Assembly (NCBI GenBank): GCA_002069755.1
Contig: MWBX01000009.1
Location: 14,514 to 78,513, forward strand
Length of the DNA stretch: 64,000 nucleotides
Reading direction: 5' to 3'
Source of the DNA: Parcubacteria group bacterium ADurb.Bin247
GTDB lineage: Bacteria; Patescibacteriota; Minisyncoccia; Minisyncoccales; CSSED10-335
The position numbers and the translations under genes are program-made. The notes beneath the pieces were generated by a model. That model had not been told where the DNA came from, searched no databases, and saw only the letters and a program-made list of their open reading frames with translations. Shown here piece after piece: positions 5,835-64,000 of this stretch (within the stretch, counting starts at the first letter, position 1; every line of letters begins with the position of its first letter).

Positions 5835-8314
5835 TAATTAAAAGAGCAAGAGAGCATAATTTAAAAAATGTTTCTTTAGAGTTGCCAAGAAACAAAATGA
5901 TTGTTTTTACTGGATTATCAGGTTCGGGTAAGACAAGTCTTGCTTTTGATACTATTTTTGCCGAGGGTCAGAGAAGATATATTGAATCGTTGTCTACATA
6001 TGCTAGACAGTTTTTGGGTGGCATGCAAAGGCCTGATGTTGATGAGATTGAAGGATTATCTCCTGCCATATCAATTAATCAAAAAGCACATAGCGCTAAC
6101 CCACGATCAATCGTTGCTACTATTACTGAAATATATGATTACTTAAGGGTTTTGTATGCTCGAGTTGGTCAACCAAGTTGCCCTGTTTGTCATATTGAAA
6201 TTGAAAAGGTGAGTAGTGATGAAATATTCAAAAGAATTAAATCTAATATCTTTTCAGGTGGAGAAATAATGATTCTTGCTCCAGTTGTTCGTGGTCGTAA
6301 AGGGGAGTATTATCAACTACTTCAAGATATGTACGAAGGTGGTTTTAAAGAAGTTAGAATTGATGGCGAAATTAAAAATTTAAGCGAAAGAATAGTTATT
6401 AAAAAAGAAGTCAAGCATACTATTGAAATCATAATCGATCAAATTAAATTTAATAAAATGAATGATGATTTTGATTTTAGGTTAACCGAGGCAATAGAAA
6501 CTGCAATTGATATTTCTAATGGTCTCTGTCAGGTTATTTTTCCTAATCAAGAAGAGAAAATCTTTAACACAAAATATTCTTGTCCAAAGTGTGGTTTTAG
6601 TTTTCCCGAAATAGAGCCAAGATTATTCAGTTTTAATAGTCCTTATGGTTTTTGTTCTGATTGCAGTGGTTTGGGTGTAAAAAATATATATACTAACGAG
6701 ATATGTGATTCTTGTAATGGTAAAAGATTAAATGATAATGCTTTGAGTGTTATGGTTGGTGGTAAAAATATATGGGATGTTGTAAGCATGACTGTTGAAG
6801 AATGTTTAGCTTTTTTTAAAAAATTAGAAGTAACTAAAAAAGAACACGAAATTGCCGATGTAATTTTGAAAGAGATTTTGAATCGGTTAAGTTTTTTAAT
6901 GGATGTTGGTCTTCATTATGTAAGTTTAAACAGAGCTACGGGAACATTGTCTGGAGGGGAGGCTCAGAGAATAAGATTAGCTTCTCAAGTTGGGACCAAA
7001 CTTGTTGGTGCTCTTTATGTTTTAGATGAGCCAACTATTGGTTTACATCAAAAAGATAATGCAATGCTTGTAAAAACACTTAGAAATCTTTGTGATATTG
7101 GCAATACTATTATTATCGTTGAGCACGATGAAGACACAATACTTGCTAGTGATTGGGTGGTTGATTTTGGTCCTAGAGCAGGTAAACATGGTGGTAAAAT
7201 AATGTATTCGGGAGAATTAAAAGGACTATTGGATAACAAACCCAAAACAGAATCTCTTACTGGAAAATATTTGAGAAGAGAGCTTAAAATAGACTTACCT
7301 AAAGAAACTAGAAAGGTAGGCAAAAATCATCCTTCTATTGAAATTATTAAAGCTAGTGAAAATAACCTAAAAGACATAAATGTTAAGATTCCACTTAAAA
7401 GATTTATTTGTCTTACCGGGGTTTCAGGTTCAGGTAAATCTACTCTAATGAATAATGTGATGTATAACTATATCTCTGGTAAGATTAATCACTTTAAAAG
7501 AGATATTAAAGTTGAAGATATTAAAAATATTAACTTAATAGACAAAGTAATTAAAATAGATCAATCAGCAATTGGTCGTTCTTCTAGATCTAATCCCGCT
7601 ACATATACTAAAGCTTATGATGAGATAAGAAATATTTTTGCGGCAACTCCCGAAGCTAGAATGCGTGGCTACAAGTCGGGTAGATTTAGTTTCAATGTTT
7701 CTGGTGGTCGATGTGAGAATTGTGAAGGAAAGGGTTCGCTAGAAATAGAAATGCATTTTTTACCTAATGTTGAGGTTGTTTGTGATGTTTGTAAAGGTAA
7801 AAGATTTAATCAAGAAACATTGTCTATTCACTACAAAGGTAAGAATATAGCCGATGTTTTGGCTATGACAATAGACGAGGCTAATGTGTTTTTTAAAGAT
7901 ATCCCGCTAATTAACGACAAAATTAAGGTTTTAAGTGAGGTTGGTTTAGGGTATCTAACACTAGGACAACCAGCAATAACATTGTCGGGTGGAGAATCTC
8001 AAAGAGTTAAATTAAGTAAAGAGCTTAGTAAAAAAAGTACTGGCAAAACACTTTATCTTTTAGATGAGCCGACAACGGGACTTCATTATGACGATATTAA
8101 GAAATTAATTTTAATGATTCAAAAGCTTGTCTCAGCTGGCAATACTGTAATAGTAATAGAGCACAATCTAGATTTTATTAAATCAGCCGATTGGGTGATT
8201 GATCTTGGGCCAGATGGAGGTGATTTGGGTGGTCAATTAGTAGGCGAGGGGACACCAAAAGAAATCTCTCGTTTATCTAGTTGGACTGGAAAATATTTAA
8301 GAAAGATAATATGA
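5819..8314 (+). CDS. uvrA: excinuclease ABC subunit A (short, 831 aa)
   Basis: Two ABC ATPase modules (GLSGSGKTSL, GVSGSGKSTL), zinc-finger Cys pairs and LSGGE signatures. Overlaps the end of uvrB. Confidence 0.95.
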   Translation: MQEKIIIKRAREHNLKNVSLELPRNKMIVFTGLSGSGKTSLAFDTIFAEGQRRYIESLSTYARQFLGGMQRPDVDEIEGLSPAISINQKAHSANPRSIVATITEIYDYLRVLYARVGQPSCPVCHIEIEKVSSDEIFKRIKSNIFSGGEIMILAPVVRGRKGEYYQLLQDMYEGGFKEVRIDGEIKNLSERIVIKKEVKHTIEIIIDQIKFNKMNDDFDFRLTEAIETAIDISNGLCQVIFPNQEEKIFNTKYSCPKCGFSFPEIEPRLFSFNSPYGFCSDCSGLGVKNIYTNEICDSCNGKRLNDNALSVMVGGKNIWDVVSMTVEECLAFFKKLEVTKKEHEIADVILKEILNRLSFLMDVGLHYVSLNRATGTLSGGEAQRIRLASQVGTKLVGALYVLDEPTIGLHQKDNAMLVKTLRNLCDIGNTIIIVEHDEDTILASDWVVDFGPRAGKHGGKIMYSGELKGLLDNKPKTESLTGKYLRRELKIDLPKETRKVGKNHPSIEIIKASENNLKDINVKIPLKRFICLTGVSGSGKSTLMNNVMYNYISGKINHFKRDIKVEDIKNINLIDKVIKIDQSAIGRSSRSNPATYTKAYDEIRNIFAATPEARMRGYKSGRFSFNVSGGRCENCEGKGSLEIEMHFLPNVEVVCDVCKGKRFNQETLSIHYKGKNIADVLAMTIDEANVFFKDIPLINDKIKVLSEVGLGYLTLGQPAITLSGGESQRVKLSKELSKKSTGKTLYLLDEPTTGLHYDDIKKLILMIQKLVSAGNTVIVIEHNLDFIKSADWVIDLGPDGGDLGGQLVGEGTPKEISRLSSWTGKYLRKII

Positions 8315-35538: not shown

Positions 35539-36775
35539 ACTATTAATCAAAAACGTTCTATTGAATGGTAAAAAAAATGATATTTTTTGCCAAAATGGAA
35601 TTATTCAAAAGATAGATAAAAAAATATCTAAAAAATCTGACATTGTAATTGATTGTAAAGGTGAGAAATCAGCAATTCCTGGATTAATTAATGGTCATAC
35701 TCATTCTGCAATGAGTCTTTTGCGTGGTATTGGTGATGATATGCCACTTAAAGAGTGGCTAGAAGATAGAATATGGCCAATAGAAGAAAAACTTTCAAGT
35801 GATGATATATATTGGGGAACCAAATTCGCTTGTCTTGAAATGATTAAAAATGGTATCTTGTTTTATAACGAAATGTATATGTTTCCTGAAATTTCAATGC
35901 AAGCTAGTGAAAAAATGGGCATAAGATCGGTAACAGGTTTAGTTGTTATGGATGTTCCTAAACCAAAAGATGTTAAAGAAATTGAAAAAAAATATCAAAA
36001 AATAAAAGAAACTGAACTATCTAAAATATCTATTAGTCCTCATAGCATCTATACGGTTTCCAAAGAAAATTTAAAATGGATAGTATCATTTGCTAAAAAA
36101 AATAATTTAATAATTCATATTCATGTGTCGGAGACAAAAGATGAGGTAGATTTTTCAATTAAAAACTATAAACAAAAGCCTATTAACTTTCTAGATAGTA
36201 TTGGACTATTAACAAAAAGAACAGTTATGGCTCATGGTGTTTGGATAGATGACGAAGAAATGGAAATTATTGGTAAGAGAAAATCTTCTCTAATATATAA
36301 TCCAACATCAAATCTAAAATTGGCAGTGGGTAAAATATTTCCTTATGATAAAGCAAAAAAATATAAAGTTAATGTTGCGCTAGGAACAGATGGCTCAGCA
36401 TCTAATAACAATTTAGATCTGCTAGAAGAAATGAAAATAGGAAGCTTAATTCAAAAATATATTCAAAACAATCCAACTGCTTTGCCAGCTCAAGAAATAC
36501 TTGATTGTGCTACTATTAATGGAGCGCGAGCTTTTGGTCTTAATTCAGGAATAATTAGTGTTGGTAAGAACGCTGACATCGCTTTAATTAATATGAAAGA
36601 TATTTCATTAATACCTGGTCATAATTTAGTTTCTGACTTAGCTTATTCTGCTTCAGGATCAGTTATATCTGATTTGATTTGCAATGGATTGCCAATTATG
36701 CTAAATAGGAAGGTAGAGAACGAGAATAGGATAATAAGTGAGTTTAAAAAAAGATCTAAAAATATAACAAAATGA
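35522..36775 (+). CDS. amidohydrolase-family nucleoside deaminase (MtaD / SAH-MTA deaminase-like)
   Basis: PGLINGHTHSAMSLLRG...LKEWLEDRIWP, HIHVSE and GTDGSASNN metal-binding motifs. Confidence 0.7.
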   Translation: MQKKDKLLIKNVLLNGKKNDIFCQNGIIQKIDKKISKKSDIVIDCKGEKSAIPGLINGHTHSAMSLLRGIGDDMPLKEWLEDRIWPIEEKLSSDDIYWGTKFACLEMIKNGILFYNEMYMFPEISMQASEKMGIRSVTGLVVMDVPKPKDVKEIEKKYQKIKETELSKISISPHSIYTVSKENLKWIVSFAKKNNLIIHIHVSETKDEVDFSIKNYKQKPINFLDSIGLLTKRTVMAHGVWIDDEEMEIIGKRKSSLIYNPTSNLKLAVGKIFPYDKAKKYKVNVALGTDGSASNNNLDLLEEMKIGSLIQKYIQNNPTALPAQEILDCATINGARAFGLNSGIISVGKNADIALINMKDISLIPGHNLVSDLAYSASGSVISDLICNGLPIMLNRKVENENRIISEFKKRSKNITK

Positions 36776-37509
36776 CAAAAGGATTTACTCTCAAATCGTT
36801 TATTCTTATAGTCGGTATTTTACTCGTACTTGCTTTATTGATTTTAACCTTTTCAAATAAAGAAAAGGATCTTAGTGATGTTGACATAGTTGAAGATTTC
36901 TATAATCAATATATCAATAATCAATTTGTTGACACTAATTTAATAACCGAAGACTTAAAGGTACAATTAGATAATTCTGATATTTCTGCAGTATTATGTT
37001 CTTCTTCATTTGACGATATTGCGATAGAAAAAGTTGAAACTAATAATGATTTTGTAGAAGTATATTTAAAGAATTTAGAAAATCCAATCAATGTCTACAC
37101 TATTAAACAAGATGGAGAATCAAAGATAAATAATATTGTTTGCACAATACCATTAAAAGATGAATATATTGAAGAACAAGAAGAAGAACAACAAGAACAA
37201 CAAGAAGAAGAACAACAAGAACAACAAGAAATTACAAACGAAATAATAATTCCCGAAGCGGCCAAAAGTTTGGTTAATTTAGCCAAGAATGATTTAGCTC
37301 AAAGATTAAGTGTTGATATTAATAATATTATAACTGTAAGGTTAGATGATGTTAATTTTTCAGATACTAGTTTAGGTTTATCTAAGCCAGGAGAAATGTA
37401 TGCTCAAGTAATAACACCGGGATACATTATTGTTTTAGAAGTTAATAATAAATATTATCGCTATCATACCGATAAATCTAGCGTTGTAGTATTTGTAACC
37501 GAAGATTAA
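36772..37509 (+). CDS. hypothetical membrane-anchored protein with acidic E/Q repeat
   Basis: N-terminal TM helix and EEQEEEQQEQQEEEQQEQQE low-complexity block. Confidence 0.45.
   Translation: MTKGFTLKSFILIVGILLVLALLILTFSNKEKDLSDVDIVEDFYNQYINNQFVDTNLITEDLKVQLDNSDISAVLCSSSFDDIAIEKVETNNDFVEVYLKNLENPINVYTIKQDGESKINNIVCTIPLKDEYIEEQEEEQQEQQEEEQQEQQEITNEIIIPEAAKSLVNLAKNDLAQRLSVDINNIITVRLDDVNFSDTSLGLSKPGEMYAQVITPGYIIVLEVNNKYYRYHTDKSSVVVFVTED
37171..37230. repeat. perfect 24-bp tandem duplication (gaagaagaacaacaagaacaacaa x2) inside coding sequence
   Basis: 37180-37203 is identical to 37204-37227. Partial copies flank both sides. Encodes EEEQQEQQ x2. Confidence 0.8.
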
Positions 37510-38888: not shown

Positions 38889-39546
38889 AATTTTAGTAAT
38901 CTTAATTGGTATAATAATATTAGTTATTATTGGATATTTTTTATTTAACAATCCTAATTCAATAGAAGACCCAAGGATTATTGCTGAAAATTGGATTAAA
39001 AATAATTCACCAGCATATATTTCTGATGGATTTGATCTTAAATATATTGATGGAGATGACTACCAACTTAATTTTGAATTCCAATCTAGATCAGCAGGCC
39101 CTCGTACAATTGAAGTATTTATAGATTCAGGCAAAGTTGTTAATTCGGTTATTGATAAATCTTATAGCGAATTCTACAATGATATAACTACTTATTCTGT
39201 TCCTTTATTTTTTATTGACTCGGAAGAAAATCTTGTAGAAATTCAAAGAATAATAGAATCCGAGCCAACACCTAGTATTGCTATTCTTGAATTAATAAAA
39301 GGGCTAACTGAAGAAGAAATAGATTTGGGTTTATTTAGTAGTATCAATCCAGAAACTAAATTAAATAATATAGATATTTTAGATGGCACCGCTTTTGTTG
39401 ATTTTGACGAAAATCTAGATGTTAGCGGATCGGCAATGGTTCTAGCTGTTAGAAACCAAATAGAACAAACATTATTAAATTTTCCAAACATTAATAATGT
39501 TATTATTTCAATTAATGGAGAAACCGAAGAAATACTTCAACCTTAG
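38875..39546 (+). CDS. membrane-anchored GerMN-like domain protein
   Basis: Internal ATG plus TM helix. C-terminal FVDFDENLDVSGSAMVLAVRNQIEQTLLNFPNINNVIISINGE resembles a GerMN domain. Confidence 0.4.
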   Translation: MTKSKILVILIGIIILVIIGYFLFNNPNSIEDPRIIAENWIKNNSPAYISDGFDLKYIDGDDYQLNFEFQSRSAGPRTIEVFIDSGKVVNSVIDKSYSEFYNDITTYSVPLFFIDSEENLVEIQRIIESEPTPSIAILELIKGLTEEEIDLGLFSSINPETKLNNIDILDGTAFVDFDENLDVSGSAMVLAVRNQIEQTLLNFPNINNVIISINGETEEILQP

Positions 39547-41006
39547 TTAAGTTTTTGAATGTGTTTTTTAGCCGAAGCGGTTTTAACGTAGTTTAGCCAT
39601 TTCTTCTTAGAGCTTTTTTCTTTCTTTGTTATAATCTCTACAATATCACCATTTTTTAATACATTTTTTAGCGAAGTCATTTTACCATTAACCTTAGCTC
39701 CACCAATATGATCACCGATGCTAGAATGAATAGCGTAAGCAAAATCAATTGGAGTTGAATTAATTGGTAAGTCAACAACATCGCCTTTAGGTGTAAAAAC
39801 AAATATTCTTTGCTGAAAAAAATCACTCTTCATTTCCTCTTCTAAACCAGATGTTTCTTGAAACTCAACTAAATCTTTTATCCAGCTAGGAACATCATCA
39901 AAATTAATTTCCTTTTTGCCAGAAAATACATTTTTAAATGGTAGTATTTTTTTTATCCATGCAAAATTTTCTGTTGTATTTTCTTTATATCCAACATGTG
40001 AAGCAATTCCATATTCAGCCTCTTGATGCATTTTTTTAGTCTTTATTTGTATTTCTACAACATTGCCATAACCAGTAAAAATAGTCGTATGAAGAGCTTT
40101 GTATCCATTCGGTTTAGGAAAAGCAATATAGTCTTTAATTCGTCCAGGTAATGGTCTGTAAGTACTATGAACAATTCCAAATATTTTATAGCAATCTTCA
40201 ACTGTTGGGACAATAATTCTTAGCGCTGAGATATCATATATTTTTTCAATGTTCCAATCTTTTCTAAGAAGTTTTTTGTAAAGACTGTATAGTGTCTTCA
40301 TTCTATAATCAACTGTAAAATCAGTTACGCCCTTTTTAGCTAAAACCTTTTTAATTGATTTTTGAAAACGATTTAGTTTATGAAACTGTTCTTTATTTCT
40401 AGTTTTCAAAAGCTCTTTTGTTTTTTTATATTCTTCAGGATAAACAAAAGGGAAAGCATAATCTTCTAAAGGTCGACTTAATTTTCTTATTCCTAATCTA
40501 TAAGCTAGGGGAGCGTATATTTCAAGAGTTTCAGTTGCTATTCTTTTTTGTTTATGTTCCGGTAAATATTTTAGTGTTTCCATATTATGCAATCGGTCAG
40601 CAAGTTTAATAATAATCACTCTAATATCTTGAGATACCGCAACAAAAAGCTTACGCAAACTTTCATTGTGTCGCTGAGCTCCTCTATACTTTAATTTCCC
40701 AAGCTTAGTAACACCTTCTACTAAAAAGAGTATTTCTTTCCCAAATAATTCTTCCACCTCCTCTCTAGTTGCTTTGCCATCTTCTATGCAATCATGCAAA
40801 AGACCAGCTGCTATAGTGGTTGAACTCATACCAAGTTCAGCTAATATTTTAGCTGTTTCTCTAACATGAACAAAATATGGCTCACCAGAAAATCTTAATT
40901 GGCCATTATGAACTGATTCTGCAAATGTAAAAGCTTTTGACACTAATTCAATGTCTTTACTTGATTGAGATGTCATTAAATCTATAATCTCTCTTAAATA
41001 ATCCAT
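39543..41006 (-). CDS. rel: bifunctional (p)ppGpp synthetase/hydrolase Rel (no ACT domain)
   Basis: HD domain (HDCIEDG) and synthetase core (RIIVPTVEDCYKIFGIVHS...YKALHTTI). TGS domain present. 487 aa. Confidence 0.9.
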   Translation of the reverse strand: MDYLREIIDLMTSQSSKDIELVSKAFTFAESVHNGQLRFSGEPYFVHVRETAKILAELGMSSTTIAAGLLHDCIEDGKATREEVEELFGKEILFLVEGVTKLGKLKYRGAQRHNESLRKLFVAVSQDIRVIIIKLADRLHNMETLKYLPEHKQKRIATETLEIYAPLAYRLGIRKLSRPLEDYAFPFVYPEEYKKTKELLKTRNKEQFHKLNRFQKSIKKVLAKKGVTDFTVDYRMKTLYSLYKKLLRKDWNIEKIYDISALRIIVPTVEDCYKIFGIVHSTYRPLPGRIKDYIAFPKPNGYKALHTTIFTGYGNVVEIQIKTKKMHQEAEYGIASHVGYKENTTENFAWIKKILPFKNVFSGKKEINFDDVPSWIKDLVEFQETSGLEEEMKSDFFQQRIFVFTPKGDVVDLPINSTPIDFAYAIHSSIGDHIGGAKVNGKMTSLKNVLKNGDIVEIITKKEKSSKKKWLNYVKTASAKKHIQKLN

Positions 41007-54382: not shown

Positions 54383-56113
54383 TTACTTGATCTGAGATTG
54401 AATATTTTTAATAAAGTCCTCCTTAGATATTTTGTAAGTATTTTTACTTCCTCTCTCTCTAACATTTAATAATCCAGACTCCATTTCCTTGTCTCCTATA
54501 ACTAAAATATAGGGGACTTTTTCATTAACTGCCTTTCTTATCTTATTCCCTACAGTTTCACTGGCATCATCAACCTGAGGCCTAAAATCCATTTGTAAGA
54601 ACTCTTCTGACAATTTGTAACAATAGTCAATGTGATTGTCTGAGACGGATATAATTTTAATTTGAATAGGAGATAACCAAAAAGGAAAGGCTCCAGCATA
54701 ATGTTCAATTAAAATTGTGCAGAAACGCTCTAGAGAACCAAATATTGTGCGATGAATCATTATTGGAGTATGATCTTTTCCATCTTGACCAATATATGTC
54801 ATATTAAACTTAGATGGTAAATTCATATCTAGCTGAATTGTTGGACATTGCCACTCTCTACCAATAGCATCAAATATCTTAATATCTAGGGCTGGGCCAT
54901 AAAACTTAGCTCCGCCTTCTTCTAATTCGTACTCAATTCCTTTTTCAACTAATATTTCTTTAATAGTTGCCTCGGCAATATCCCAAACATCAGAATCACC
55001 AACATACTGGTCAAGATTTTTAGGATCCCTAGCAGCTAAATAATATTTAAACTTAGTAAAACCAAAATTAGAAAATACATTTAGAGTTAATTCTACCACT
55101 TTTCTATACTCGTCTTTGAACTGCTCTTTAGTACATATTATGTGAGCATCATCTTGAGTAAAACCCCTGGGTCTTGCAAGACCATGAAGCTCACCAGATT
55201 TCTCGTAACGATAGCAAGTACCTAACTCGTTCCACCTTATTGGCAAATCACGATAACTTCTTCTTCTAGATTTATATATTTCAACATGAAAAGGACAACT
55301 CATTGGCTTTACATAATATTCATCTTTTGTTTCTTTATCAGAAAATGGAGGAAACATAGAATCTTTAAAATATCCTAAATGACCCGATTCTTGCCAAAGC
55401 AAAGAACGACCAATATGTGGCGTATAGACATAATGATATCCATTTTGACGATGAACTTTTCTCCACCATGTTTCTAAAACTTCTCTTGTTTTAGAAAGAT
55501 TAGGATGCCAGAGTATAAGTCCCTGACCAACTTTATCACTAATACTAAATAAATCAAATTCTTTAGCTAATCTACGATGATCTCGAAGCTCGGCTTCTTT
55601 TAGAAGCTCAGTATATTCGTTTAAATCTTTTTCGGTTTCAAAAGCTAGAGCATATATTCTAGTAAGCATCTTGTTATTCTCATCTCCTCGCCAATATGCT
55701 CCAGCGATCTTGTTAAGTTTAAACGCTTTTACCTCACTCGAAGATTTAATATGCGGTCCTCGACATAAGTCTTCAAAATCTCCTGTTTTAAAATATGTAA
55801 CCTTTTGTGTTCCTTCAGATTTTAAATCTTCTAATAGCTCTACTTTGTAAATCTCACCTCTTTGTTTTTCTTTATCTATTGCCTTCAAGATATCTTCTTC
55901 ATACTTTTCAAATGGCAAATCTTGAGCAATAATACTCTTCATTTTCTTTTCAATCTTTGCAAAATCATTTTCATTAATAACAGTATCTCCAAAATCAAAG
56001 TCGTAGTAAAAACCATTGTCAATTGCTGGTCCGATAGCAAGCTTAACATTGGGCCAGATATCTTTTACTGCTGCTGCCATAATATGAGCGGCTGAGTGTC
56101 TTAATGTTTCCAT
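54383..56113 (-). CDS. thrS: threonyl-tRNA synthetase (no N-terminal TGS/editing extension)
   Basis: METLRHSAAHIMAAAV start, class II core motifs and anticodon-binding domain. 576 aa. Confidence 0.9.
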   Translation of the reverse strand: METLRHSAAHIMAAAVKDIWPNVKLAIGPAIDNGFYYDFDFGDTVINENDFAKIEKKMKSIIAQDLPFEKYEEDILKAIDKEKQRGEIYKVELLEDLKSEGTQKVTYFKTGDFEDLCRGPHIKSSSEVKAFKLNKIAGAYWRGDENNKMLTRIYALAFETEKDLNEYTELLKEAELRDHRRLAKEFDLFSISDKVGQGLILWHPNLSKTREVLETWWRKVHRQNGYHYVYTPHIGRSLLWQESGHLGYFKDSMFPPFSDKETKDEYYVKPMSCPFHVEIYKSRRRSYRDLPIRWNELGTCYRYEKSGELHGLARPRGFTQDDAHIICTKEQFKDEYRKVVELTLNVFSNFGFTKFKYYLAARDPKNLDQYVGDSDVWDIAEATIKEILVEKGIEYELEEGGAKFYGPALDIKIFDAIGREWQCPTIQLDMNLPSKFNMTYIGQDGKDHTPIMIHRTIFGSLERFCTILIEHYAGAFPFWLSPIQIKIISVSDNHIDYCYKLSEEFLQMDFRPQVDDASETVGNKIRKAVNEKVPYILVIGDKEMESGLLNVRERGSKNTYKISKEDFIKNIQSQIK

Positions 56114-56118
56114 ATTTT

Positions 56119-56973
56119 TTAAATTAGTTTAAAGTTATTAAATATATTGATAATTCCATCTTGATCCACGTCACCACCTATAAAATTATTCTTGTCTTTA
56201 TCAGATAAAACCAAATCTTTCAATTCTTTTTGACCATTTTGTAGTGTTGCTCGATAATCACACAACTCAATAAAAGACCAATCACCAAGACTATCTCCAA
56301 TACCAAGAGATTCACTAAAAGATACTCCGTAATAATTTGCCACTTTCTCACAAGCAGTTCTCTTAGAAACACTTTTCTTAGTAATTATAACAAATAGGGT
56401 ATTGGGAAGTATTGGATGAGTAGATGCCTCGTAATTAATATCACTAGACAATGATTTAAAATGGTTTAATATCTCTTCGGTATTGTCTACTTTTTCATAA
56501 GCCACAATTATTTTTACAATATCTTCCTTTTTCGACACCAAAGCCAAATCATCAACTAACACCGCACTTTGCTGATGATCATATTGTGCTTTTTGAGTAA
56601 TTTCAAAGCTTTGCTTTTTATCAAAAAAATAGTTGTCTTTAGAATAAAGACAGATATACTTCTTTTTTCCAAAACACTTATTAGATAATTCTTTAACAAT
56701 ATTTGAATCTATACTCTGAATATCTAATATCTTTCCATTAAGGTCTGCTATAACAGCACCACCATCGGCAATATGCATACCCGGAAGGTCTAGATTAGAT
56801 AATATCTTTTTAGTAGAAAACAATGGTTTGGCGGTACAAAGAGTAATGCCAACGCCACTTTCTTTGATACTTTTGATAGCCGAAGAAACGCTAGAGCTAG
56901 GAAAAGGAAAGTTCCTGTTCAAAATACCTCCTGTTATTACACCATCAATATCTGAAAATATGTGTTTGATCAT
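56119..56973 (-). CDS. HAD-superfamily hydrolase (Cof/IIB-like)
   Basis: N-terminal DxD (IFSDIDGVITGG) and C-terminal GIGDSLGD motifs. Internal ATG at 56973 chosen. A -10 TATTAT lies about 9 nt upstream. Confidence 0.65.
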   Translation of the reverse strand: MIKHIFSDIDGVITGGILNRNFPFPSSSVSSAIKSIKESGVGITLCTAKPLFSTKKILSNLDLPGMHIADGGAVIADLNGKILDIQSIDSNIVKELSNKCFGKKKYICLYSKDNYFFDKKQSFEITQKAQYDHQQSAVLVDDLALVSKKEDIVKIIVAYEKVDNTEEILNHFKSLSSDINYEASTHPILPNTLFVIITKKSVSKRTACEKVANYYGVSFSESLGIGDSLGDWSFIELCDYRATLQNGQKELKDLVLSDKDKNNFIGGDVDQDGIINIFNNFKLI

Positions 56974-57013
56974 AATGCAGATATAATACACTATTTTACT
57001 TAATTTTACTAGT

Positions 57014-57036
57014 TGACAAAACAATATATCTTGTCA
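57014..57036. promoter_or_regulatory. perfect inverted repeat TGACAA-N11-TTGTCA in divergent HAD/tyrS intergenic region
   Basis: tgacaaaacaatatatcttgtca. Candidate operator. Confidence 0.3.
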
Positions 57037-57196
57037 TAGTTGGAATAAAGGGTACAGAAATGAAAAAGGTTAATGTAGTTAGAAGTGATTTTCTTCATAT
57101 TACAACCGCGTTACAATAAAAAAGAAATGCATTGTATTTACCCCATTATTTTTATAACACCTAGTTTAAAAAATAAATTTGTGATAATATGCAATT

Positions 57197-58357
57197 ATGA
57201 AAAATGAAAAAGTCAAAGAGTTATTAACTAGGGGAGTTGACGAAATAATTGATAAAGCTAGCCTAGAAAAAAAACTAAAAAGTGGCAAGCCACTTAGAAT
57301 TAAGTTTGGTACCGACCCAACAAGTCCCAACATACACTTGGGTAGAACTATACCAATATTAAAATTAAGAGACTTTCAAGAATTGGGTCACAAAATTATA
57401 TTTATTGTCGGAGACTTTACTGGGTTAATTGGAGATACTTCAGACAAAGAAAGTGAACGACCAATGTTATCTGAACAAACAGTTAAAGAAAACCTAAAAA
57501 CATACATCAAACAAGCTGGGAAAATAATTGATATTGATAAAGCCGAAATACACTATAACAGCAAATGGCTCGGCAAGTTAAAATATATGGATATTGGCCG
57601 CCAAGCAAACTCGTTCTCTTTAAACGAATTCATTTCTCGAGAAAATATCAAACGAAGACTAGACAAAGGTAAGAGAGTTTCTCTAAGAGAGCTATTATAC
57701 CCACTAATGCAAGGATACGACTCAGTAGAAGTAAAAGCCGATGTTGAAATTGGAGGCACTGACCAACGCTTTAACTTGTTGGCTGGAAGAGATCTTCAAA
57801 GACTCTACGGTCAAGAACCTCAAGATATTATTACAAATCCTTTAATTGAAGGGCTAGATGGAAGAAAAATGAGCTCTAGCTTTAGAAATACTGTTAATCT
57901 ATTTGATACACCTAATGATATGTTTGGAAAAATAATGTCTTTGCAAGATAGTTTAATTATTAAATACTTTATACTCCTCACACGAATAGACTTAAAAGCA
58001 ATTAAAAAATACGAAAACTCAATTACTAATCCTCGTGATTTAAAAATGAAATTAGCTTTTGAAATTACTAAAATGTATCATTCAAAAAAAGATGCTGAAT
58101 TGGCCCAAGATTATTTTATTAAAACATTTTCTAAAAAAGAAATACCTAGTGAGGTTGAAAAGTTCAAACCCAGCAAATACGACATTGTATCCATATTAAT
58201 TGAATCTGGCCTAGTTCCTTCTAAATCAGAGGCTAGAAGAACAATTATTCAAGGAGGAGTAAAAGTTGATGGGATAGTTGTAAAAGATGTTTCTTGCAGT
58301 GTAGCTCGCAATTCAATTATTCAAAAGGGCAAAATTAAATTTATTAAAATAGTCTAG
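57197..58357 (+). CDS. tyrS: tyrosyl-tRNA synthetase (bacterial type with S4 domain)
   Basis: HIGH-like (PNIHLGR), KMSSS, and C-terminal S4 domain (SKSEARRTIIQGGVKVDG). Confidence 0.9.
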   Translation: MKNEKVKELLTRGVDEIIDKASLEKKLKSGKPLRIKFGTDPTSPNIHLGRTIPILKLRDFQELGHKIIFIVGDFTGLIGDTSDKESERPMLSEQTVKENLKTYIKQAGKIIDIDKAEIHYNSKWLGKLKYMDIGRQANSFSLNEFISRENIKRRLDKGKRVSLRELLYPLMQGYDSVEVKADVEIGGTDQRFNLLAGRDLQRLYGQEPQDIITNPLIEGLDGRKMSSSFRNTVNLFDTPNDMFGKIMSLQDSLIIKYFILLTRIDLKAIKKYENSITNPRDLKMKLAFEITKMYHSKKDAELAQDYFIKTFSKKEIPSEVEKFKPSKYDIVSILIESGLVPSKSEARRTIIQGGVKVDGIVVKDVSCSVARNSIIQKGKIKFIKIV

Positions 58358-58389
58358 CTTTTAAACAATATTTATTATATAATATCGGT

Positions 58390-59403
58390 ATGAATAAAAA
58401 ATTAGAATTAATTAAAGCAGAAGCTCTTAGAGAAATCGAATCTTCAAAAGACGAGAATTCTTTAAACAAGATATACAAAAAACATTTCAAAGAATTGTCT
58501 TCTATTTTCTCTCAAATGGGGACGCTAAGTCCAGAAGAAAAAAAAGTTATTGGCGTGAAAGCTAACGAAATCAAACAAGCAATTACCATTTCTTTTGAAA
58601 ACAAGAAAAAAAACTTTACAAAAAAAGATAAGACTAATTCTGAGTTTTTTGACATTACTATTCCTGGCAAAAAAACAAAAGTTGGTCATCTCCATCCAAT
58701 AACTCAAGCAATAAACGAAGCAGAAAACATATTTAGAGGTATGGGATTCTCAATAGTTGAAGGACCAGAGCTAGAAGATGAATGGCATAATTTTGATGCT
58801 CTCAATTTTCCAGAAGATCATCCAGCCAGAGAAATGCAAGATACCTTCTTTGTAAAAAATGAACCCAAGAAGAGATTATTAATGAGAACACACACATCTC
58901 CAGTACAAATTAGATATATGCTGGACAACAAACCACCTTATAGAATTATTGTTCCAGGAAGGGTTTTCAGAAACGAAGCAACCGATGCTAGCCATGAAGT
59001 AAACTTTCATCAGATAGAGGGATTAATGGTAGACAAAGAAATATCGGTTGCTAATTTTAAAGCTGTAATTGAAGAATTTTGTAGAGAATTTTTTAACCGA
59101 GATGTTAAGATAAGACTTAGACCATCTTTTTTCCCTTTTACCGAACCGTCTTTCGAAGTAGATATGAGTTGTTCTGAATGCAAGGGAAAGGGATGTTCAC
59201 TATGTTCTCAAACTGGATGGTTAGAAATATTAGGCGCCGGAATAGTTCACCCAAGTGTTTTTAAAAACAGTGGTGTTGACCCTAAAAAATGGCAAGGATT
59301 TGCCTTTGGTCTTGGTTGGGATCGATGGGTTATGCTAAAATACAAGATCAACGACATTAGGCTCTTCTATAATGGAGATTTAAGATTTTTAAATCAATTT
59401 TAA
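58390..59403 (+). CDS. pheS: phenylalanyl-tRNA synthetase alpha subunit
   Basis: Class II motifs (FRNEATDASHEVNFHQIEG, GAGIVHP, GFAFGLGWDR). Confidence 0.9.
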   Translation: MNKKLELIKAEALREIESSKDENSLNKIYKKHFKELSSIFSQMGTLSPEEKKVIGVKANEIKQAITISFENKKKNFTKKDKTNSEFFDITIPGKKTKVGHLHPITQAINEAENIFRGMGFSIVEGPELEDEWHNFDALNFPEDHPAREMQDTFFVKNEPKKRLLMRTHTSPVQIRYMLDNKPPYRIIVPGRVFRNEATDASHEVNFHQIEGLMVDKEISVANFKAVIEEFCREFFNRDVKIRLRPSFFPFTEPSFEVDMSCSECKGKGCSLCSQTGWLEILGAGIVHPSVFKNSGVDPKKWQGFAFGLGWDRWVMLKYKINDIRLFYNGDLRFLNQF

Positions 59404-59405
59404 TT

Positions 59406-61355
59406 ATGAAATTTTCATACAACTGGTTACAATCAATTATAATAAAGAAACTTCCAAATCCAAAAGATTTGGCAGATATAATTACCATAAGATTCTTTGA
59501 AGTAGAAAGTGTAGAAAAGCTAAAAGATGATTGGATTATTGATATAGATGTTTTGCCAAACAGAGCCGGAGATTGCTTGTCACACATTGGAGTTGCAAAA
59601 GAAATTGCAATTATACTTAACAGCAAAATCAGAAAAGAAGCCTTAAAGTTAAGAGAAGTGTCTAGAAATGCTAAAGACCTTGTATCTGTAGAAGTATTAG
59701 ACTCTCTTAATTGCAATCGCTACACTGCTCGAGTAATGATAAATATTAGCGTGGCTGAGTCTCCAAAATGGATTAAAGAAAGACTAGAATCGTGTGGAAT
59801 TCAATCAATTAATAATGTGGTAGACATTGCTAATTATGTAATGCTTGAAATGGGTCAACCATTACATATTTTTGATTTAGACAAATTATCAAATAAAGAA
59901 ATAGTTGTAAGAATGAGTAAGGCTGGAGAAAAGATTACTACTCTGGACAACAATAATTTTGTTTTAAACAAAAACATCCTATTAATCACAGATAACAAAG
60001 ACCCGCTAGCAATTGCCGGAATCAAGGGAGGTAAAAAAGCAGAGATAGATTTAAAAACTAAAAACATAGTTATAGAATCGGCTAATTTCAATAGGACAAG
60101 TATTAGGAAAGCTTCAGCTCAATTAAAACTTAGAACCGATGCATCTCTAAGATTTGAGCACGGACTAGACCCCAATATGACCAATATCGCAATAGATCGA
60201 ACTGCACAAATGATACAAGAAATTTGCTCAGGACAAATTGCCAAAGGAATCATAGATATTTATCCTAACAAAAACAAACCTAAAAAGATTGACCTAAATT
60301 TGACAAAAGTTCAAAAAGTTTTAGGGATAACTATTAAGGCAGATAAAATTAAAAAGATAATCAATGATCTAGATTTAAAGATAATATCTTCTAAAAAAGA
60401 CAATCTTTTAATTGAGGTTCCAACTATAAGGCAAGATATTACAATTGCCGAAGATATTATAGAGGAAATTGGAAGAATTTTAGGATACGATAAAATAAAA
60501 TCCGAATTACCATCGCTACCCATAACACTACCCATAAAAAACAAAGATTTCTTTTGGAAAAACGAAATTAAAGAATTGTTGAAATCTGCTGGTCTTACTG
60601 AAGTATACAATTCTAGCTTTCTAAGCCAAGAACAATTCGAAACTTTTAAATATGTTGATTTAATAGAAATAGAAAAACCAGCAACAATTGATCAACAATA
60701 CTTAAAACCATCACTAATACCTAATTTAATTAAGAATATAGAATTTAATAGCAAATTCTTTGAAGAAATAGAAATATTTGAAATTGGCAGTGTTTTTTCT
60801 AAATCTAGAGAAGAAGAACATTTTGCAGTAGCCCTTAAAAACAAAACATTCTTTGACGCAAAATCAATATTAGAACTAGTAGCGGGTAGAATGAATTTAG
60901 AATTATCTTTTAAGTTAACAGAGAATAATTTATTTGATAATTCGGCTGAAGTATTTCTAGGATCTGAAAAGATTGGAATATTGGGATACAATTCAAATTT
61001 ATCAATATTTGAAGTAAACTTTGACAAAATGAAAAAACTAGCGGTTAACAAAAAGCAGTATTGTCCCATACCAAAGTTCCCCGAATCTAGTCGAGACTTA
61101 GCTATAATCGTTCCTAAAGAAATCACTTACGAAAACATTGTTAATGAGATCAAAAAAGCAAACATACAATTGTTAGAAGATATTTCCCTTTTTGATATTT
61201 ATTCTGACGATAAACTTCCAAAAGAAAGTAAAAGTATGGCATTGAGATTAATTTATCGTGCAAATAGAACTCTAACCAGTGAAGAAGTTAATGAGATGCA
61301 TAGTAAAATTATTAAACACATTGAAAAAAACAACAATTGGATCGTAAGAAAATAA
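59406..61355 (+). CDS. pheT: phenylalanyl-tRNA synthetase beta subunit (reduced, 649 aa)
   Basis: B3/B4, B5 and catalytic-like domains plus C-terminal FDX-ACB-like domain. No N-terminal tRNA-binding domain. Confidence 0.85.
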   Translation: MKFSYNWLQSIIIKKLPNPKDLADIITIRFFEVESVEKLKDDWIIDIDVLPNRAGDCLSHIGVAKEIAIILNSKIRKEALKLREVSRNAKDLVSVEVLDSLNCNRYTARVMINISVAESPKWIKERLESCGIQSINNVVDIANYVMLEMGQPLHIFDLDKLSNKEIVVRMSKAGEKITTLDNNNFVLNKNILLITDNKDPLAIAGIKGGKKAEIDLKTKNIVIESANFNRTSIRKASAQLKLRTDASLRFEHGLDPNMTNIAIDRTAQMIQEICSGQIAKGIIDIYPNKNKPKKIDLNLTKVQKVLGITIKADKIKKIINDLDLKIISSKKDNLLIEVPTIRQDITIAEDIIEEIGRILGYDKIKSELPSLPITLPIKNKDFFWKNEIKELLKSAGLTEVYNSSFLSQEQFETFKYVDLIEIEKPATIDQQYLKPSLIPNLIKNIEFNSKFFEEIEIFEIGSVFSKSREEEHFAVALKNKTFFDAKSILELVAGRMNLELSFKLTENNLFDNSAEVFLGSEKIGILGYNSNLSIFEVNFDKMKKLAVNKKQYCPIPKFPESSRDLAIIVPKEITYENIVNEIKKANIQLLEDISLFDIYSDDKLPKESKSMALRLIYRANRTLTSEEVNEMHSKIIKHIEKNNNWIVRK

Positions 61356-61356
61356 T

Positions 61357-62604
61357 ATGAGAATAACAAAACTATTTAGTAAAACTAGGAAAGACAGCCC
61401 TAAAGATGAAACTAGTAAAAATGCACAGCTTTTAATAAAATCAGGCTACATCCACAAAGAATTAGCTGGAGTCTATACCTATCTTCCTCTAGGCCTTAGA
61501 GTGATTAATAAAATATCAAATATCATCAGAGAAGAAATGGATAATGCCGGTGGTCAAGAAATATTGATGACTGTTCTACAAGATAAAAATATTTGGGAAA
61601 AGTCAAAACGTTGGGACGATAATGCAGTTGATGATTGGTTTAAAACAAGACTTAAAAACAATACAGAATTGGGTCTTGGATTTACTCATGAAGAACCATT
61701 GGTCAACTTAATGAAAAACCATATTAGCTCATACAAAGACTTACCAATATACCCATACCAAATACAAACAAAATTTCGTAATGAATTAAGGGCTAAGTCT
61801 GGAATAATGAGAGGAAGAGAGTTCTTAATGAAAGATATGTATTCATTTTCTAAAAACAAAGAAGAGCATAATTTATTTTACGAAAAAATGAAAGAGGTCT
61901 ATATGAGCATATTTAATCAATTGGGACTAGGGGACAAAACATACACTACAATATCTTCTGGTGGATCTTTTTCAAAATATTCTTATGAATTTCAAACAGT
62001 ATCCGATGCTGGAGAAGATATAATATATATTATAGACCAAGAGAAAAAATTGGCTATCAATGAAGATGATTTTAACGAAGAAACTCTCAAAGATTTTGGA
62101 TTAAACTTAAACAAGGAGACTCTCCGATCAGAAAAATCAATTGAAGTAGGGGATATATATAGTTTGGGCTACAGATATTCTAAAGCACTGAACTTAAAAT
62201 ATACTAACGAAAAAGGATTAGATGAATTTGTATATATGGGCTGTTATGGAATTGGAATATCAAGATTAATGGGAGCAATTGTAGAATTAAATAGCGATGA
62301 TAAAGGGCTTGTTTGGCCTAGAGAAGTATCTCCATTTGATATTCACCTGATATCTCTTTCTAAAACAGAAGACTATGCTAATAAAATATATGATGAGTTG
62401 GTTAAAAGAGGCTTTTCGGTATTGTTTGACGATCGCCAAGACACAACAACTGGAGTAAAGTTTAACGATGCTGACTTAATAGGAATTCCAAAACAAATAA
62501 TTATTGGAGAAAAAAGAATAAAAAATAACGAAGTAGAAATAAAAGATAGAAAAACTCAAGAAATTAAAATTATTTCAGTTGATTCTTTATACGATTTATT
62601 GTAA
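61357..62604 (+). CDS. proS: prolyl-tRNA synthetase, bacterial type without INS editing domain
   Basis: MRITKLFSKTRKD...LLIKSGYIHKELAGVYTYLPLGLRVINKISNIIREEM matches the ProRS N-terminus. Class II motifs present. 415 aa. Confidence 0.85.
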   Translation: MRITKLFSKTRKDSPKDETSKNAQLLIKSGYIHKELAGVYTYLPLGLRVINKISNIIREEMDNAGGQEILMTVLQDKNIWEKSKRWDDNAVDDWFKTRLKNNTELGLGFTHEEPLVNLMKNHISSYKDLPIYPYQIQTKFRNELRAKSGIMRGREFLMKDMYSFSKNKEEHNLFYEKMKEVYMSIFNQLGLGDKTYTTISSGGSFSKYSYEFQTVSDAGEDIIYIIDQEKKLAINEDDFNEETLKDFGLNLNKETLRSEKSIEVGDIYSLGYRYSKALNLKYTNEKGLDEFVYMGCYGIGISRLMGAIVELNSDDKGLVWPREVSPFDIHLISLSKTEDYANKIYDELVKRGFSVLFDDRQDTTTGVKFNDADLIGIPKQIIIGEKRIKNNEVEIKDRKTQEIKIISVDSLYDLL

Positions 62605-62607
62605 AAT
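62572..62607. repeat. direct repeat copy 1 (3' end of proS)
   Basis: atttcagttgattctttatacgatttattgtaaaat. Identical, apart from a 1-nt indel, to 63926-63962. Confidence 0.9.
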
Positions 62608-62612
62608 CAAGA

Positions 62613-63476
62613 ATGGATATAAAGCCAATCAAAATAAGACTCAAAATAACCGGTAAATGCAATAAGTCTTGCTTCTTTTGTCATAAAGAAGGAGGAGATA
62701 ATATAGATGATTTTTTGCTGGATGATGATTTTATTAATTGTATGAATGAATTTGAAAAAATAGGGATAAAAAATGTCATTTTGACAGGCGGAGAACCTAC
62801 ATTATGCCCAGACTTCGAAAAAATATGTCAATACCTTTCTAAAAAATTCCATGTTACTGTCGTAACAAACGGATCAATAGTAAAAGATTGGAGTAAAATA
62901 CAGGTAAATAAAATAACAATAAGTATCCATTCACTAAACCCAGAAAAAATGATAAAATTAGAAAACATTAAAAGAACAAAAAGTTGGGCAAAAAAAGAAA
63001 TAGAAAAAATTAAAATAAACATTACAAATATAATTAATTCTAAAAAGGAAGCAAGAATAAACCTCGTTGTGACTGACAGGGAAAGCCTAAAAGAAGCAGA
63101 AAATCTTTCCCATACCGGAATAGAGGTAAGGCTACTTAACAACCTTAATGATATAAAAAATAGTCAAAAAATAATTAATAATTTTATAAAGGAAAAGAAG
63201 GCCACGAAAAGATATGAGTATAGAAGAATGTCTAACCATACAGCTTATTATGATGGTGAGTTAAAGTTTTCTACTAAAATATCTTATCCTTTCTATTTTG
63301 ATGCTATCTGTAAGGATTGCAGTTTTAAAAAAAAATGTTACGAAGGATTTTACGGACTAAGACTAGAAAAAAGAGGGGGCTACTATGTTCGACTCTGTTT
63401 ATATAAAAATCTAATCTATCCATATAAGGATTTCTTAAAATCAAGAATGAAAAACGATTTCTTAAAATTATGCTAG
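62613..63476 (+). CDS. MoaA/viperin-like radical SAM enzyme (GTP 3',8-cyclase fold family)
   Basis: IRLKITGKCNKSCFFCHKEGG aligns with the MoaA LRISxTDxCNxRCxYCxPxxG motif. GGEP and TNGS follow. C-terminal CKDC...GLRLEKRGGYYVRLCLY aligns with the MoaA second-cluster CxxC...RLRVSSTGDLKLCLF. Confidence 0.65.
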   Translation: MDIKPIKIRLKITGKCNKSCFFCHKEGGDNIDDFLLDDDFINCMNEFEKIGIKNVILTGGEPTLCPDFEKICQYLSKKFHVTVVTNGSIVKDWSKIQVNKITISIHSLNPEKMIKLENIKRTKSWAKKEIEKIKINITNIINSKKEARINLVVTDRESLKEAENLSHTGIEVRLLNNLNDIKNSQKIINNFIKEKKATKRYEYRRMSNHTAYYDGELKFSTKISYPFYFDAICKDCSFKKKCYEGFYGLRLEKRGGYYVRLCLYKNLIYPYKDFLKSRMKNDFLKLC

Positions 63477-63937
63477 AACAAGAATTGCGATACAAGATAA
63501 CAAAAGAGAAAGCTCAAGAAATAATATCCAAAAAAAACTTCTCAAAACCTCAAAAACAGACAGACACATATTATGAGGGATATTTCGAAGGAATTTTCAG
63601 AATAAGAGAGTCTAATAGTCAATATTTTTGTCACAAATATTTTAAAGGCGATAGTTGGGAAGAGTGGGAAGTAGAAGTTCCACTTAAGACTGCTATGGAG
63701 TTGAAGAAAGCTTTAGAGAGTCAAAAAACAATAAATATTATTAAAATTAGGCAAAAATTTTATGATAATGGCATTGAAATAAATATCGATGAAATAGAGG
63801 GCCTTGGAATATTTTGCGAAATAGAGATGGTTGGGAAAACAAAGAAAGACATTAGAGCTATTGCAAAAAAAATGAATCTAGAAGGAGAAATAAAAGAAGG
63901 TTATGTCCAATTAATGAAAAGGGAGATTTCCAGTTGA
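63470..63937 (+). CDS. CYTH-domain protein (CyaB/thiamine-triphosphatase-like triphosphate tunnel metalloenzyme)
   Basis: N-terminal EQELR (ExExK-like), RIR, and paired acidic strands EWEVEV and FCEIEMV. 155 aa. The stop codon lies inside repeat copy 2. Confidence 0.6.
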   Translation: MLEQELRYKITKEKAQEIISKKNFSKPQKQTDTYYEGYFEGIFRIRESNSQYFCHKYFKGDSWEEWEVEVPLKTAMELKKALESQKTINIIKIRQKFYDNGIEINIDEIEGLGIFCEIEMVGKTKKDIRAIAKKMNLEGEIKEGYVQLMKREISS

Positions 63938-63962
63938 TTCTTTATACGATTTATTGTAAAAT
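63926..63962. repeat. direct repeat copy 2
   Basis: atttccagttgattctttatacgatttattgtaaaat, immediately followed by the serS start. Confidence 0.9.
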
Positions 63963-64000
63963 ATGAATATGTTAGATATAAAATTCATAAAAGAAAACGC
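63963..64000 (+). CDS. serS: seryl-tRNA synthetase, N-terminal fragment at window edge
   Basis: M-N-MLDIKFIKEN... matches the canonical SerRS N-terminus MLDxKxIRENP. Only 12 codons are visible. Confidence 0.45.
   Translation, partial: MNMLDIKFIKEN

Follow-up and report, generated by a model that had tools for sequence, protein, structure and literature searches.

How do two accessory genes come to stand between proS and serS, two essential aminoacyl-tRNA synthetase (aaRS) genes of a Parcubacteria genome, with a copy of the last nucleotides of proS on either side of them? The question arises from a stretch of 64,000 nucleotides of Parcubacteria group bacterium ADurb.Bin247 (contig MWBX01000009.1; the whole stretch is called the window here), in which a radical S-adenosylmethionine (radical SAM, rSAM) gene and a CYTH-domain gene lie between the two copies, proS preceding and serS following. 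An earlier note, made from the letters of the window, had described the two direct repeats with their one extra C and had read the pair of genes as a promoterless cassette, recently inserted at a targeted site within an otherwise conserved run of aaRS genes. We find that accessory genes have a small hotspot at the proS|serS junction of this species, where alternative and unrelated cassettes occupy one position within near-identical flanks, and that the duplicated proS tail most likely serves, judging from its sequence and placement, as the promoter for both the cassette and serS.

The repeat itself was borne out. Without gaps it extends over 35 nt (62573-62607 and 63928-63962) with 34 of the 35 positions identical; allowing a 1-nt indel, the extra C at 63931, it reaches back over ATTTC to give 62572-62607 and 63926-63962. 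Calculated from base composition, 3e-8 such pairs are expected by chance per 64-kb window, and the proS-tail repeat is the sole long direct repeat in the window that is not of low complexity (an in-frame GAAGAACAA-type repeat of period 9/15 was seen at 37171-37230, a low-complexity acidic stretch within the open reading frame (ORF) at 36772-37509). Copy 1 consists of the end of proS plus AAT. The CYTH ATG overlaps the rSAM stop codon in a 7-nt overlap (ATGcTAG), from which the two cassette genes are probably coupled translationally, as the earlier note had proposed; as it also stated, the downstream gene ends on a TGA (63935-63937) inside copy 2. The same note placed copy 2 right before the serS ATG, which is true of a first ATG at 63963, whereas the conserved serS start, judged by the facts that the preceding 6 nt are polymorphic across contigs and that gene callers choose the second ATG, is the ATG at 63969 (MLDIKF...).

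The window matches a Parcubacteria metagenome-assembled genome (MAG), GCA_022705645.1, from anaerobic digesters, and the duplicated arrangement was recovered in at least 10 contigs from NCBI, ENA, JGI and Logan assemblies made from different samples. In a sister species, whose proS is 82% identical, contig L176 carries pheT-proS-serS with a single copy of the tail and no cassette: TAAAAT is followed by 7 nt and then by the serS ATG. The cassette-free junction with one tail, which the earlier note had predicted, thus exists in the sister species, and of the proposed recent and targeted insertion the first element stands, since relative to the proS-serS adjacency of L176 the cassette is an insertion. 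Its being recent or targeted does not follow, given two cassettes at the site, no empty allele among conspecific contigs and no recombinase within 10 kb.

The second cassette was found by an exact lookup of the proS protein, which returned contigs with a different insert after the same proS (L012-L014, L177-L180, L190 and L191). This second allele holds a 146-aa (or 122-aa) ORF, a 164-aa CYTH-like ORF and a decayed remnant of proS. The 146-aa ORF has no family match; the 164-aa protein aligns with the CYTH profile in its C-terminal half (hhalign 92%, E 6.7e-7; BLASTP 2e-4), and neither allele-2 protein is matched in Pfam, PADLOC or PHROG. Both alleles share their boundaries, on the left directly after TAAAAT, at the same base, and on the right directly before the tail and serS. 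Contigs with allele 1, that of the window, differ from contigs with allele 2 at 6-19 positions in the 11,251 nt upstream (flanks about 99.9% identical), and from the serS start onwards L177 and L011 show no difference for 2,250 nt. Larger divergence can exist between contigs that share a cassette (97 differences in 2.9 kb for L002 and L011), so that the haplotypes of the flanks do not follow the type of cassette but are shuffled relative to it. Samples ERZ27249273 and JGI 3300010351 each contain both alleles.

In the pan-genomes of E. coli and Pseudomonas, hotspots between core genes hold defence islands, and cargo is swapped by homologous recombination in the flanks. The proS|serS junction resembles these in its two unrelated cassettes, its near-identical flanks, its shuffled haplotypes and the occurrence of relatives of its cargo near defence-type genes. 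It differs in that the site is a 6-nt gap within what appears to be a promoter and leaderless-start unit of a genome-reduced bacterium of the Candidate Phyla Radiation (CPR), and in that two alleles only, and no empty one, were seen.

The remnant in allele 2 has three parts. The first, ATGAATATGTTAGA, is identical to serS nt 1-14 and abuts proS codon 220; the second corresponds to proS codons 220-284 at 85% nucleotide identity, with 28 differences of which 19 are at third codon positions; the third follows an in-frame deletion and is a perfect match (100%) to the final 46 nt of proS. Where the serS start meets proS codon 220, the junction overlaps a 6/8 microhomology (ATGTTAGA compared with ATGCTGGA of proS). 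The remnant is nearer to the resident proS (85%) than to the proS of the sister species (72%). At L177:12369-12623 (also in L012, L013 and L178-L180) it forms an open frame of 82-84 aa, MNMLEENIIYIID...SVDSLYDLL and stop, which begins with the serS start codons; the frame is disrupted only in L014. A degenerate third copy of the tail, upstream of the serS-start fragment in allele 2, was considered, and the similarity was too weak to claim. Decayed internal tail copies within allele 1 were likewise considered and rejected: an exact 14-mer, TAAAATCAAGAATG, lies at the proS/rSAM junction (62602-62615) and again near the rSAM 3' end (63436-63449), with GATTTCTTAAAAT occurring twice nearby; the second 14-mer encodes the family-conserved rSAM C-terminus DFLKSRMKNDFLKLC, the score of the recurrence was reached by 5 of 300 shuffles, and it is probably due to chance.

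How might serS be expressed behind either cassette? Both copies of the tail in the window contain the sigma-70-like arrangement TTGATT-17-TAAAAT. The -10-like hexamer precedes the start codon by 6 nt at serS (7 nt in the sister species) and by 5 nt at the rSAM gene. These distances were compared with the gene starts of the window: at 10 of the 45 a hexamer matching TATAAT in at least 5 of 6 positions ends exactly 6 nt before the ATG, where the background is about 1 per position, so that 6 nt is the genome peak, and a -10-like box lies 4-9 nt upstream in 17 of the 45, compared with 7.6% of all plus-strand ATGs. A Shine-Dalgarno-like motif was present at only 1 of the 45. Together, the -10 peak at 6 nt and the near absence of Shine-Dalgarno motifs indicate leaderless transcripts (examples of gene starts with the pattern: 1139, 11359, 21230, 39543-41006 on the minus strand, and 58390). 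The cassette is thus probably not promoterless in the sense of the earlier note, as copy 1 sets the two hexamers 5 nt before the rSAM ATG in a manner that fits the leaderless pattern of this genome. Leaderless genes with a -10 box a few nt before the start codon are known from Actinobacteria and Deinococcus, and the likeness extends to the TATAAT-like peak 6 nt before ATG and the few Shine-Dalgarno motifs; what differs here is that the organism belongs to the Parcubacteria and that the putative promoter overlaps the final codons and the stop of the gene before it. A search of the papers available found no description of the leaderless pattern for the CPR (Patescibacteria).

Three further observations bear upon the tail. 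Its 31-nt core was invariant in 40 of 40 copies from 20 loci (about 17 distinct contigs, some having been fetched twice), beside a 6-nt spacer that occurs in 3 variants. Over its final 30 nt, proS has 1 difference from that of the sister species, compared with 20% gene-wide, and only 31 of the 1,222 30-nt windows of proS are that conserved. Within allele 2 the final 46 nt are intact beside a remnant of 85% identity. The invariance of the core, the conservation in the sister species and the intact allele-2 tail would fit a constraint beyond coding.

Features of the proS|serS junction; positions are those of the window.
Feature	Coordinates	Strand	Remarks
proS	61357..62604	+	415 aa, short bacterial type; last 10 codons and stop in copy 1; Pfam tRNA-synt_2b and HGTP_anticodon
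Repeat copy 1, proS tail (ATTTCAGTTGATTCTTTATACGATTTATTGTAAAAT)	62572..62607	+	ends at left boundary of both cassette alleles
-35-like hexamer TTGATT, copy 1	62579..62584	+	9/12 matches, 17-nt spacer
-10-like hexamer TAAAAT, copy 1	62602..62607	+	first 3 bases are the proS stop TAA; rSAM ATG 5 nt on
Radical SAM gene	62613..63476	+	287 aa, PF04055; small uncharacterised family
CYTH (triphosphate tunnel metalloenzyme) gene	63470..63937	+	155 aa, PF01928
Repeat copy 2, duplicated proS tail	63926..63962	+	extra C at 63931; directly upstream of serS
-35-like hexamer TTGATT, copy 2	63934..63939	+	
-10-like hexamer TAAAAT, copy 2	63957..63962	+	6 nt before serS ATG, commonest spacing in genome
Spacer from -10-like box to serS start	63963..63968	+	6 nt; strain variants ATGAAT / ACAAAT / GTAAAT
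serS 5' end (MLDIKFIKEN...)	63969..64000	+	cut by window end; complete in L001 and other loci

The explanation we prefer for the locus as a whole, and which we regard as reasonably probable, joins a hotspot, a serS promoter embedded in proS, a tail duplication that keeps serS expressed, exchangeable alleles and cargo of a conflict or defence type. At the ancestral junction the final ~30 nt of proS would, as in the sister species, be the serS promoter at the same time, and the serS transcript would be leaderless, starting 6-7 nt past the -10 box. The 6-nt gap after that box would be the only insertion point that leaves proS undamaged, and foreign genes placed between the box and the serS ATG would take over the promoter, the CYTH protein being translated by coupling to the promoter-driven rSAM gene. 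An insert of this kind would separate the essential serS from its promoter, and would be viable only with a second, promoter-bearing tail before serS. The starting event was most likely a tandem duplication that reached from near proS codon 220 to serS nt 14, giving at once a promoter copy and a harmless landing site; such an origin is suggested because allele 2 keeps the junction of serS start and proS codon 220 that the duplication would create. The cassette would then occupy the gap between promoter and ATG in the first copy, and the superfluous proS fragment would have decayed, to 36 nt in the window's allele, with its promoter part retained; the window's allele would represent the most reduced state, or else an independent event. 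Both alleles would now circulate within a single recombining population, where homologous recombination between the identical flanks could replace one by the other.

Several points weigh against this explanation. Pairs of promoter-like hexamers occur at chance frequency in this region of 30% GC (40 found and 33 expected), and because they are not above chance the motif alone proves nothing. The tail belongs to a coding sequence as well, and proS itself thus accounts for part of its conservation. A terminator is absent between proS and serS, and the cassette and serS could also be expressed by read-through. The sole outgroup contig, L176, is only 1.6 kb long, and among conspecific contigs no empty allele was seen, every one of them carrying either cassette. 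Allele 1 lacks any trace of the serS-start/proS junction and may be an independent insertion. The 14-nt match to the serS start is marginally significant when taken over the whole allele-2 cassette (11 of 300 shuffles reach its score), and it draws its weight from its exact position at the junction. The proposed role of the cargo in defence, finally, rests on guilt by association.

Site-specific integration, to which the earlier note had also pointed as a possible origin, is the alternative that survives best, although we judge it unlikely. By this account small elements are integrated by a recombinase (tyrosine, serine or HUH) acting in trans, the 3' end of proS provides the attachment site attB, and the repeats represent attL and attR, a surrogate for the end of proS being brought in by the element. 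Such sites are classically found at gene 3' ends, two unrelated cassettes have exactly the same left and right boundaries, and the repeats are identical in all copies. There is also an analogue in another CPR genome, Nomurabacteria RIFOXYD2_FULL_35_12, where the last 53 nt of the sigma-70 gene rpoD are exactly duplicated (L120:909-961 and 2322-2374; also L048) around a 1.36-kb insert with an IS200-like Y1 transposase gene (1556-2233, minus strand) and a 116-aa ORF, and where a terminator-like hairpin follows copy 2. This was the one real analogue in a screen for tail duplications in 1.7 Mb of fetched loci; the one other candidate, at L107:7242-7451, repeats 55 nt from the start of the gene that follows proS, flanks a run of N and was rejected as a scaffolding artefact. 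In islands borne by integrases at the 3' ends of genes the repeats likewise copy the end of the target gene, the target stays intact and the cargo is accessory and strain-variable.

Unlike such islands, the insert at the proS|serS junction is only 1.35 kb long and no integrase or recombinase lies in it or nearby: Pfam lists for L001 and L177 name no recombinase among the genes of either cassette or of the 10 kb to its left and right, and a crude tblastn of the window with integrase and Y1 transposase gave no match. The tail has no inverted repeat inside it or beside it, its 32-mer was absent from the viral contigs scanned, and no empty, excised or circular form was seen among conspecific contigs. 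The repeat furthermore coincides with the putative promoter of a downstream essential gene, and a 200-nt mid-gene remnant of proS fused to the serS start is unlike a product of att recombination; this fragment points instead to tandem duplication or homologous recombination. Nor does the structure correspond to that left by a transposon or insertion sequence, as the duplication is 35-46 nt or longer, compared with target-site duplications of 2-15 bp, and there are neither terminal inverted repeats nor a transposase. Integron cassettes are similar in being small and promoterless-looking, in using one insertion site and in being expressed from an upstream promoter; here, by contrast, the imperfect palindrome of the attC type, intI and attI are all lacking, and the repeat is a copy of the end of a host gene.

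A somewhat smaller chance is given to the duplicated tail being a neutral footprint, a by-product of microhomology-mediated template switching or of illegitimate recombination, with read-through from pheS-pheT-proS expressing the cassette and serS. The missing terminator and the chance frequency of promoter-like matches in AT-rich DNA, both given above, would suit this account, as would the shortness of the repeat and the single base by which the allele-1 duplicate departs from copy 1. It does not lead one to expect a 31-nt core that is invariant in 40 copies when the following 6 nt are variable, nor a -10 to ATG spacing that is exactly the commonest value of the genome. In allele 2, moreover, the neighbouring remnant is 15% diverged and has suffered a deletion, whereas the last 46 nt are intact; if both had decayed alike, the probability would be about 0.88^46 = 0.003.

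An origin of cassette and duplication before the sister species split off, with loss of both in that species through recombination between the tail copies, appears improbable. Direct repeats of 35-46 nt do favour precise deletion, the outgroup is a single contig, and the remnant, being 15% off proS, implies a duplication that is old relative to the divergence of the strains. Against these, the duplication of a tail is by definition derived from a single-copy state, more distant relatives have no proS-serS adjacency, and the remnant, with its 85% identity to the resident and 72% to the sister proS, places the duplication after the split or derives it from a closer lineage. A chimeric join made by an assembler, a general risk with MAGs and one illustrated by the duplicate beside the N-gap in the unrelated locus L107, may be dismissed as having next to no probability, because the identical structure was repeated in the at least 10 independent contigs, from four sources and several assemblers and samples, because contigs of 12-58 kb span both copies, and because both the final k-mers (k141) and the reads far exceed the 35 nt of the repeat.

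The aaRS genes around the junction were compared with those of relatives. The proS product was assigned with TIGR00409 (424 bits; cut-off 307). A set of about 160 loci whose proS is at most 68% identical was gathered from collections of metagenomes and genomes; pheT adjoined proS in none of them, and a partial serS match was present in L129 alone, lying over 5 kb downstream. It follows that the aaRS run, which the earlier note called conserved, is lineage-specific and not broadly conserved. It comprises thrS (minus strand), tyrS, pheS, pheT, proS and serS (54383-64000 of the window, continuing downstream in L001 and L177), with cysS and aspS within about 8 kb downstream of serS in these two contigs; the proS relatives at or below 68% identity do not share this cluster. 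Immediately 3' of serS there is a second variable spot (L001:12659-13587, L002:12664-13587, L003:5773-6573, L005:2863-5328), where a gene of 248, 266 or 307 aa without a Pfam match is found, differing by contig; L005 has a UbiA gene and a different histidine kinase there instead, and its similarity to the other contigs ends about 1.25 kb past the serS start. The GC content of the cassette equals that of the genome, so that it bears no foreign signature, and Rfam gave no match anywhere in the 64-kb window.

What might the cargo of the window's allele do? The rSAM protein has a CxxxCxxC cluster, a conserved C-terminal CxxCx5C...C and the motif EGFYGLRLE. Prokaryotic viperins (pVips) and MoaA are radical SAM enzymes that act on nucleoside triphosphates, and the N-terminal rSAM core resembles theirs (PADLOC pVip, E 1.6e-17; archaeal MoaA, E 1.9e-26); a C-terminal Cys cluster with the motif RLE..G....C is a further likeness to MoaA, and the rSAM protein is here paired with a triphosphate-handling enzyme. 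It nevertheless falls far below the cut-offs of both families, scoring 55.7 bits with the viperin model NF038283 (cut-off 180), over residues 7-157 only, and 92.7 bits with the MoaA model TIGR02668 (cut-off 325), with a C-terminal Cys cluster that is spaced differently; it belongs to a small family of its own (130 cluster representatives at E <=1e-30 among 1.84 billion), and its pairing with CYTH is not a described system. The predicted structure (predicted local distance difference test, pLDDT, 86.6) gave generic matches to radical-SAM folds with TM of about 0.5 (SuiB, viperin-like and BlsE). The CYTH protein scores 44.6 bits with PF01928 (cut-off 23.2) and has an N-terminal E3-x-E5-x-R of the ExExK type, which identifies it as a triphosphate tunnel metalloenzyme; its relatives in the PDB are PH1819, Pfu-838710 and SaTTM, and it lies below the cut-off for the class IV adenylate cyclase CyaB (TIGR00318, 37.1 bits; cut-off 57.95). 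A single-sequence AlphaFold model of the CYTH protein (pLDDT 48) was too poor to use.

Pairs of rSAM and CYTH genes recur: the nearest members of the rSAM family have a CYTH gene after them in unrelated contexts (L181, L182 and L183), and L200 has the order CYTH, 409-aa gene, rSAM. At about 30% identity, members of the rSAM family adjoin DUF4062 within elements containing ArdA, ParB and integrase (L184-L188, rSAM at 5001-5942), and other distant members (L195-L199, rSAM at about 4001-4957) are found in a conserved operon of HTH, CTP_transf_like, a 616-aa gene, rSAM, PPDK_N and ThsA_Macro. Both the DUF4062-linked and the ThsA_Macro contexts resemble uncharacterised conflict systems. PADLOC matched only the rSAM core of its pVip models; none of its defence models matches the CYTH or the allele-2 proteins, and no anti-phage defence system described there matches the whole gene set. 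A search of the papers available found none on the rSAM and CYTH pair, and nothing relevant on DUF4062 with rSAM. Because neighbours of the family are of defence type and presence of the cassette varies among strains, a nucleotide-directed conflict module is suggested; that the cargo constitutes one, combining a CYTH enzyme with an uncharacterised radical SAM enzyme that would bear an auxiliary Fe-S cluster, seems to us about equally likely to be right or wrong.

A wider proposal would be that gene-dense, leaderless CPR genomes, where promoters lie in the last codons of the upstream gene, gain genes only together with a duplication of the gene tail, as a general mark, and that proS|serS is a balanced two-allele locus for undescribed CYTH-based modules of nucleotide-directed immunity, the rSAM and CYTH pair being one; as a whole we consider this a long shot. 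If the preferred explanation is true, accessory genes can be acquired even where a genome is ultra-compact and has no intergenic DNA to spare, the downstream essential gene being served by a promoter copy. The locus offers an example, at the level of the population, of cassette polymorphism in an uncultivated Parcubacteria species, and the uncharacterised radical-SAM/CYTH pair is a candidate for a nucleotide-based conflict system. Current ideas are not overturned by these results; their value is that of a clear and testable case.

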